From: a virus
Taxonomy: Duplodnaviria; Caudoviricetes
Strand: one strand, 5' to 3'
DNA length: 64,000 nt
Virus record (IMG/VR): IMGVR_UViG_3300014208_000024
Coordinates: 64,001-128,000 of that record
Shown: positions 13,157 to 13,204 of the stretch, piece after piece
Numbering within the stretch: the stretch's first letter is position 1
Layout: each line of letters begins with the position of its first letter
Notes under the pieces: model-generated
The model's input: only the letters and a program-made list of their open reading frames with translations
What the model was told of the DNA's origin: nothing
Database searches by the model: none
Translations under genes and position numbers: made by a program

Positions 13157-13204
13157 TGGTGCTGAGAAGGGGATTTAAACCCCCTGCATCACTAAAGACT
13201 CAGC
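13157..13204 (-). ncRNA. 48-nt acceptor/T-arm minihelix ending in ACCA, overlapping the PTH2-like stop
   Basis: GCTGAG/CTCAGC, GGGGG-TTTAAAT-CCCCT, 3' ACCA. Confidence 0.65.

Follow-up and report, generated by a model that had tools for sequence, protein, structure and literature searches.

A PTH2-like gene of a giant groundwater phage ends inside a conserved tRNA-shaped RNA gene, with possible consequences for its message

Where does a protein gene end when its last codons are also the first half of a tRNA-shaped RNA, and what would happen to the message if that RNA were cut out? The question is raised by a PTH2-like open reading frame (ORF) in a stretch of 64,000 nucleotides (hereafter the window), which spans bases 64001-128000 of a groundwater phage record in IMG/VR (372 kb) and has a G+C content of 29%. 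When positions 12800-13600 of the window were compared with sequencing runs, only groundwater DNA runs matched, and blastn of positions 12600-13650 against cultured and deposited phages returned no match. The 372-kb genome carries 46 tRNA genes, two of them with a CUA anticodon inside the window and one with a UUA anticodon outside it.

Under translation table 11 the ORF was called from a GTG at 13552 (13552-13175, 125 aa). In-frame upstream extension of this call begins ATG-TTA-TAG-ATT.., and its stretch AKLIVVVRRDL fits the N-terminus of PTH2; the gene therefore extends over 13588-13175 and has amber as its third codon. Pfam PF01981 (PTH2) matched the product with 35.1 bits against a gathering cut-off of 23 (E = 1.7e-8), and the PDB Pth2 chains 2zv3 (E = 6.7e-7) and 1rzw aligned to residues 10-112 of 137. 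Both the Pfam and PDB alignments place the end of the Pth2 fold at ~112-114, about 23 residues before the stop. The ORF is thus a member of the PTH2 family of jumbo phages and, like those genes, lies beside tRNA genes (Iyer et al., 2021; PMC7824862). Jumbo-phage PTH2 was proposed to act in rescue after tRNA cleavage, and the same paper holds no description of stop-less ORFs that run into tRNA or tRNA-like genes (PMC7824862). The early amber codon is common in the family: in 24 of 25 distant homologues a TAG stands 1-4 codons past the ATG and is followed by an Ile or Val codon, and CUA tRNA genes always lie within a few kb of such genes. The features of the locus are collected in Table 1.

Table 1. 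Coordinates of the PTH2-like gene, the adjoining RNA elements and two unrelated ORF/tRNA overlaps
Feature	Position	Strand	Remarks or evidence
PTH2-like ORF	13588..13175	minus	137 codons; ATG 13588, in-frame TAG 13582-13580, TAA 13177-13175
C-terminal tail past the Pth2 fold	13178..13246	minus	residues 115-137; conserved ..IDKNSYK, then variable AESLVMQGV
ORF/RNA gene overlap (nine codons + TAA, 30 nt)	13175..13204	minus	codon-position identity
Element 1, 48-nt tRNA-like minihelix RNA gene	13157..13204	minus	fold, conservation, covariance model R1
Element 1 acceptor 5' strand	13204-13199	minus	
Element 1 linker, 14 nt	13198-13185	minus	
Element 1 T-like stem-loop	13184-13168	minus	loop 13179-13173
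Element 1 acceptor 3' strand	13166-13161	minus	
Element 1 discriminator A and CCA	13160; 13159-13157	minus	
Element 2, 53-nt tRNA-derived RNA	13104..13156	minus	+1 base abuts element 1 CCA
Conserved 23-nt spacer before element 3	13070..13092	minus	GTTCTTTGACGTATTGGAAAAGC; (near-)identical in L027, L028, L035
Element 3, tRNA-shaped RNA	12999..13067	minus	Rfam tRNA 50.4 bits, one loop position missing
Unrelated ORF/tRNA overlaps	L087:2895-2968 tRNA(CUA); L095:3014-3088 tRNA-Cys		ORFs of 213 and 303 codons

An earlier note on this DNA had placed the last nine codons and the TAA within an ACCA-ended minihelix, and this anatomy holds, as the minus-strand sequence, the ViennaRNA fold and the ORF coordinates agree. 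The RNA (element 1) reads from 5' to 3' GCUGAG-U, a 13-nt linker, GGGGG-UUUAAAU-CCCCU, U-CUCAGC and ACCA. The AESLVMQGV codons run through the acceptor 5' strand and the linker and take in the 5' half of the T-like stem, and the TAA falls in the 7-nt loop. Element 1 possesses the acceptor stem, T arm and discriminator of a canonical tRNA, though the acceptor stem consists of 6 pairs and a U.U mismatch instead of 7 pairs, and the loop on the 5-bp T-like stem is UUUAAAU or UUAAAAU, not UUCRANY. Of the canonical loop, U54, U55, A57 and A58 are kept while C56 is not; A73 is present. The 3' end is ACCA also in L028/L031/L049 and in L038, and ACAA in L027, L037, L052 and L053 (4 of 7 sequences). Having no anticodon, element 1 cannot decode, and no conserved determinant of its aminoacylation identity was seen.

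Three known kinds of element were considered and rejected for element 1. As a canonical tRNA (RF00005) it has only 14 nt between the acceptor and T stems and neither a D nor an anticodon arm. As the tRNA-like domain of a tmRNA it has U3-A70, whereas tmRNA and tRNA-Ala carry G3-U70, and it lacks a tag reading frame; ARAGORN -m found no tmRNA in the genome. As an intrinsic terminator it is a hairpin with no T run after it, and no minus-strand terminator-like site was found. Rfam gave no match at E <= 10 over 13104-13204, and ARAGORN in standard, intron, mitochondrial and low-threshold modes made no reliable call at elements 1 and 2.

The minimum-energy fold of element 1 (nested, ViennaRNA) has -16.7 kcal/mol and z = -2.5, and 3 of 200 shuffles were as good. 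By itself this energy is only modestly unusual, and the case is carried by conservation. Relatives were gathered by protein search, from the encoding contigs and by a DNA pattern scan of metagenomes. Among the 19 matches of a degenerate-pattern scan of metagenomes, 12 were unrelated coding sequences; exact-pattern scans of IMG/VR gave one unrelated match for a 19-mer and none for the conserved spacer. Seven distinct versions of element 1 were obtained, and the covariance model R1, which was built from these same sequences, scores each at 62-79 bits. In the 372-kb genome R1 found one copy, with the next-best match at 13.5 bits. In the alignment 97% of the stem cells were paired, compared with <=61% when the partners were slid, and the T-stem pair 25-37 occurs as G-C, G-U and A-U. 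Covariation over the seven sequences was not above that of shuffles and not statistically significant.

The copy in L038/L040/L044 lies outside any ORF, in an array that it shares with tRNAs and other ACCA-ended minihelices; a PTH2-like gene only 43% identical to that of the window is located 1.2 kb upstream. Its first 22 nt, the whole linker included, are identical to the window, and its loop contains no in-frame TAA. These observations bear on one alternative, namely that the structure is a tRNA pseudogene in decay or a hairpin formed by chance where the ORF ends. A fold z-score of only -2.5 would suit such a reading. So would the tRNA-Leu of another jumbo phage, whose acceptor stem and 3' end UCUCAGCACCA match element 1; the match suggests where element 1 came from and is consistent with a tRNA origin by internal deletion. 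However, element 1 exceeds the flanking coding sequence in conservation and persists where the PTH2 protein has diverged to the degree seen in L038/L040/L044, its linker is nearly invariant and its stems are maintained. The pseudogene or chance reading is already disfavoured, and we consider it extremely improbable. In five other jumbo-phage records, R1 matched only the 3' halves of ordinary tRNAs. Judged from these comparisons, element 1 is a real, conserved, tRNA-derived small RNA gene with a genomic CCA and without D or anticodon arm.

The PTH2-like ORF has no stop of its own: past IDKNSYK it continues into the RNA gene, where the first in-frame TAA terminates it. In the seven overlapping genes the mean pairwise identity at codon positions 1/2/3 was 0.83/0.91/0.65 in the body and 0.83/0.82/0.85 in the last nine codons, and 8 of 9 distinct codon changes in the overlap were non-synonymous. 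The last nine codons lack a coding signature and therefore evolve as RNA. Furthermore, the tails of the window gene and its relatives diverge directly past DKNSYK (AESLVMQGV, KQTLLT, QNVVLI, SLCYETA, EKEESYV). By the codon-position pattern, constraint on the RNA rather than on the protein is shown for the overlap, and the nine-residue tail is, on this evidence, a by-product of a recombination-prone junction.

The junction is unstable also on the tree. The earlier note had held that its reading would fail if the overlap were absent in homologues, and the answer was divided. In the nearest, well supported clade of 16 proteins, 7 carry the minihelix tail and 9 do not, with the two states interleaved, and P0004, which has the minihelix tail, forms with P0011, whose tail is ordinary, a sister pair (support 99/95) that forces at least two changes of state. 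Sisters without the overlap either have an ORF of 118-130 aa in the place of element 1, with element 2 directly after that ORF (L035), or lack the array. Outside this clade, all 25 IMG/VR homologues (39-54% identity) have ordinary stops, as do five deposited (INPHARED) phage genomes including Bxz1 and three further loci. In total the overlap is absent in >30 more distant loci, and among the distant homologues checked on DNA only L071 has an analogous ORF-into-tRNA junction.

What would such a junction do to the message? Along the coding strand from the ORF to the array we found no terminator-like site and no convincing promoter, promoter-like matches being at chance level. The ORF and element 1 would then be co-transcribed, though an internal promoter in the AT-rich ORF end may offer an alternative. 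Bacterial RNase P accepts minihelices as substrates, and the features that matter are stacked acceptor and T stems, G1-C72, A73 and CCA (PMC11221534). Element 1 of the window has 6+1+5 stacked layers, G1-C72 and ACCA. RNase P would cut at 13205/13204 and at 13157/13156, the latter being the 5' end of element 2; as the CCA of element 1 directly abuts the first base of element 2, two RNase P cuts would release a CCA-ended 48-mer. The earlier note had argued that excision at the 5' end of the minihelix removes the stop codon. This logic is sound, the TAA being inside the loop, and it is indirectly supported by the conservation of element 1 as an RNA gene, by the CCA that abuts element 2, by the lack of a terminator-like site or convincing promoter after the ORF, and by the related ORF of L071, which is stop-less ahead of an abutting CUA tRNA. 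Ribosomes ahead of cleavage would terminate in the loop, while later ones would stall at the new end and need rescue, so that the output of the PTH2-like protein would be lowered or conditional. Truncation at ..YKN would drop only residues 129-137 and keep the whole Pth2 fold and the conserved C-terminal motif. Excision by RNase P that leaves a non-stop mRNA is plausible from the sequence, and use of the overlap by the phage as a stress switch is possible. We favour as reasonably probable the reading that element 1 is an RNA gene with a by-product protein tail and likely non-stop consequences for the PTH2 message.

The message may also escape any such consequence, either because the 5' end stays uncut on PTH2 transcripts or because the minihelix is transcribed separately; in a variant, the minihelix would form a stable structure at the 3' terminus after element 2 has been removed, with the stop 18 nt from the tRNA-like 3' end. 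Overlapping genes combine a 14-nt linker with UUUAAAU or a 15-nt linker with UUAAAAU, and both combinations keep the TAA in frame, which fits this alternative and hints, as weak evidence, that termination in the loop matters and that uncleaved message is translated. Little weight can be put on selection for the stop, because alternative combinations also reach a stop within ~12-40 codons. The freely varying tail and the use of the junction as a swap point, where sister phages have the 118-130 aa ORF instead of the minihelix, point the same way, as do the promoter-like matches of the ORF end, chance-level as they are. However, the acceptor/T-stem stack, G1-C72, A73 and CCA on which RNase P relies are all present in element 1, L038 keeps a conserved copy of it outside any ORF, and the RNA that abuts the ORF in L071 is a canonical tRNA, which must be processed at its 5' end. 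An overlap without consequence therefore seems to us somewhat unlikely. A separate matter is the stop itself: tRNA genes of the ochre-reading type (anticodon UUA) that also encode CCA occur outside the window (G000:C1:33634-33706) and in L038 (reverse complement 2581-2653), and should these tRNAs be active, some leakage could occur at TAA stops, the one in the T-like loop among them.

The predicted non-stop message recalls arfA of E. coli, in which a hairpin inside the ORF end is cleaved by RNase III to give a non-stop mRNA whose product is repressed by tmRNA (PMC3989581). Similar to arfA, a structured RNA occupies the last codons of a gene of the translation-rescue type, cleavage would remove the stop, and the truncated PTH2-like protein would keep its functional part. 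The two cases differ in the presumed nuclease and its target, RNase P and a tRNA-like RNA here but RNase III and a hairpin in arfA, and in that element 1 is an independent RNA gene, found also outside ORFs and inside the ORF end of only some orthologues. Taken further, the analogy makes the gene a sensor: cleavage at 13204 would be efficient, nearly all PTH2-like protein would come from non-stop mRNA, this product would be tagged by tmRNA and degraded, and protein would accumulate only under saturation of trans-translation, as might arise where defence nucleases or RNA decay induced by the phage leave many ribosomes stalled. Several observations agree with such a sensor, namely the structured RNA upstream of the stop inside the ORF end, as in arfA (PMC3989581), the membership of the protein in the peptidyl-tRNA/ribosome-rescue family, the intactness of the fold and C-terminal motif in the ..YKN-truncated product, and the recurrence of the ORF-into-tRNA architecture, seen on DNA in L071 and perhaps shared by as many as 7 other cluster representatives. 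Against it stand the gain or loss of the overlap at least twice in the nearest clade, with the ordinary stop of the 99/95 sister, the normal stops of the 25 IMG/VR and 5 INPHARED homologues and 3 further loci, the maintenance of an in-frame stop in the loop, and, for 165 tRNAs of these phages, two unrelated ORFs that also end 3-4 codons inside a tRNA, so that such overlaps are not PTH2-specific. Because a 5' cut would leave a stop-less PTH2 message, the arfA analogy is mechanistically coherent; its regulatory claim is weakened by the patchy distribution of the overlap, and we regard a sensor of this kind as quite unlikely.

Junctions between ORFs and tRNAs were found elsewhere too. In L071 (363-1004) a related PTH2-like ORF ends ..DKNSYKQ (table 11, exact), and the next base belongs to a CUA tRNA (672-745). 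The junction is at the same point as that of the window, and the frame stays open through the CUA tRNA, a tRNA-Ile(UAU) and a tRNA-Ile(GAU) for 110 codons, to end at a TAG in a fourth tRNA-like RNA. Of 187 PTH2-like cluster representatives, eight have C-terminal extensions that resemble translated tRNA (VAQLVE, GSNP, GFES); L071 is the one confirmed on DNA, and the other seven are candidates from their protein tails. IMG/VR relatives of one such candidate, P0160, end at a TAG directly past the fold, and some tails may therefore be artefacts of gene callers that read TAG as sense. As an annotation warning, the C-terminal tails of such ORFs may be translated tRNA sequence. Among the 165 distinct tRNAs of these phages, the two unrelated ORFs mentioned above end inside same-strand tRNAs (Table 1), so short overlaps are not unique to PTH2. 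In the genome of the window, none of the 46 tRNAs contains the end of a credible ORF.

The amber codon 3 allows a different model, in which translation gates the maturation of the RNA. Ribosomes that pass this codon, for which a CUA suppressor tRNA is needed, would unfold the RNA gene and block its processing; when the suppressor tRNA is scarce, the RNA would fold and be excised, and the ORF would act as a sensor for the tRNA array. The early TAG of 24/25 distant homologues, always near CUA tRNA genes, would fit this arrangement, and the RNA invaded by the L071 ORF is the CUA tRNA itself. However, the proposal is purely a model, the RNA invaded in the window is not a suppressor tRNA, and most homologues have the amber codon without any overlap. 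We hold it to be very unlikely. In general form, stop-less PTH2-like genes that abut a tRNA or tRNA-like gene could be translated mainly from non-stop mRNAs made by RNase P, or translation through the early amber could gate tRNA maturation; that one of the two applies seems unlikely to us. If non-stop translation of PTH2 were true, it would couple the output of peptidyl-tRNA hydrolase to the ribosome-rescue state of the host, in an arfA-like manner via RNase P, and either coupling would wire tRNA processing and the expression of a translation-rescue enzyme directly together.

To return to the favoured reading, an RNA gene whose excision probably leaves non-stop messages, precedents exist for parts of it. 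In MALAT1/mascRNA and MEN-beta/menRNA, RNase P cuts once, and that cut is where a long RNA ends and a small, CCA-ended tRNA-like RNA begins (PMC8457004). Likewise, the predicted RNase P cut would define the 3' terminus of the mRNA together with the 5' end of element 1; mascRNA and menRNA, however, come from eukaryotic non-coding transcripts, whereas the cut predicted here would lie inside a phage coding sequence, upstream of its stop. With regard to the RNA itself, minihelices, armless mitochondrial tRNAs and the tRNA-like domain of tmRNA serve as substrates for RNase P as well as for the CCA-adding enzyme and some synthetases (PMC11221534). Element 1 retains the top half of a tRNA as these do; it differs from them as a gene that occurs naturally in a phage and whose 14-nt linker is conserved.

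A further parallel is the tRNA punctuation of animal mitochondria, where mRNA ends are set by excision of abutting tRNAs and where gene overlaps and incomplete stops occur. Mitochondria complete U or UA stops by polyadenylation. By contrast, the cut predicted in the phage would leave a message ending ..AAA AAC, with no stop and no way to make one. Thus jumbo-phage PTH2, the formation of 3' ends by RNase P at a tRNA-like structure, mitochondrial punctuation and arfA are already known. Our literature searches found no description of the mini-tRNA family of element 1 or of its linkage to PTH2-like genes and suppressor tRNAs, nor of a phage coding sequence whose stop lies inside such a mini-tRNA. 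The locus appears to represent an undescribed family of mini-tRNAs that lack an anticodon, encode CCA and accompany PTH2-like genes and stop-codon suppressor tRNAs. Here a protein gene of a giant phage and a conserved tRNA-shaped RNA gene share 30 bases, and the shared part obeys the rules of the RNA, not those of the protein. If the RNA is excised as its shape predicts, each excision would leave the message of a ribosome-rescue-type enzyme without a stop, a compact and testable link between tRNA processing, trans-translation and phage translation control. The predictions are sharp and can be tested in vitro, and the regulatory idea is drawn from sequence alone.

Element 1 does not stand by itself. 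It opens a series of anticodon-less tRNA look-alikes that lie in tandem after the PTH2-like gene, on the same strand. Element 2 has an acceptor stem like that of tRNA-Pro, a short hairpin (5-7 nt loop), a canonical T arm GGUUCGAGUCC and discriminator A; it is without a D arm, and the short hairpin replaces the D and anticodon arms. Its three-way fold was predicted in all nine homologues with many compensatory changes, and the first pair of the acceptor varies between C1-G72 and U1-A72. Element 3 was reported by ARAGORN as 'tRNA-???'. The loop of its anticodon arm is of 6 nt or of the tetraloop type (CUUCGA here, UUUG/UUCG in relatives), leaving no usable anticodon; with these structures neither element 2 nor element 3 can decode. 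A conserved putative signal GTTCTTTGA.. stands only before element 3, and spacer-like (A)nGTTCTTTGA motifs precede RNA sub-arrays in L038; the spacer GTTCTTTGACGTATTGGAAAAGC is possibly a promoter or processing signal. The 46 ordinary tRNA genes mostly have an A-rich leader ending ..AAAU and a trailer of discriminator + CAAA, with CCA encoded in 7 of 46, and the A-rich 'leader' (YK[NKQ] codons) and ACCA/ACAA trailers of element 1 resemble theirs.

Some minor observations were made in the arrays of relatives. In L038 (reverse complement 2487-3125) four ACCA-ended minihelices are interleaved with tRNA(UUA), tRNA-Cys and tRNA(CUA), and three of the four combine a GNRA hairpin with a GGUC-UUAAGU-GACC hairpin. 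The motif UCUU[U/A]AGUGA is common to the L038 minihelices and the linker of element 1 in the window; RNAalifold proposed a 2-bp mini hairpin there, with one compensatory change; the loop displays UAG or UAA. In L027 (3230-3440) and L028 (660-815) a tRNA-like gene (GCCCCCAUAGCUUAAUUGG...GGUUGGGGGC) is split by an insert of ~110 nt past the anticodon-stem region, and this arrangement is conserved between the relatives.
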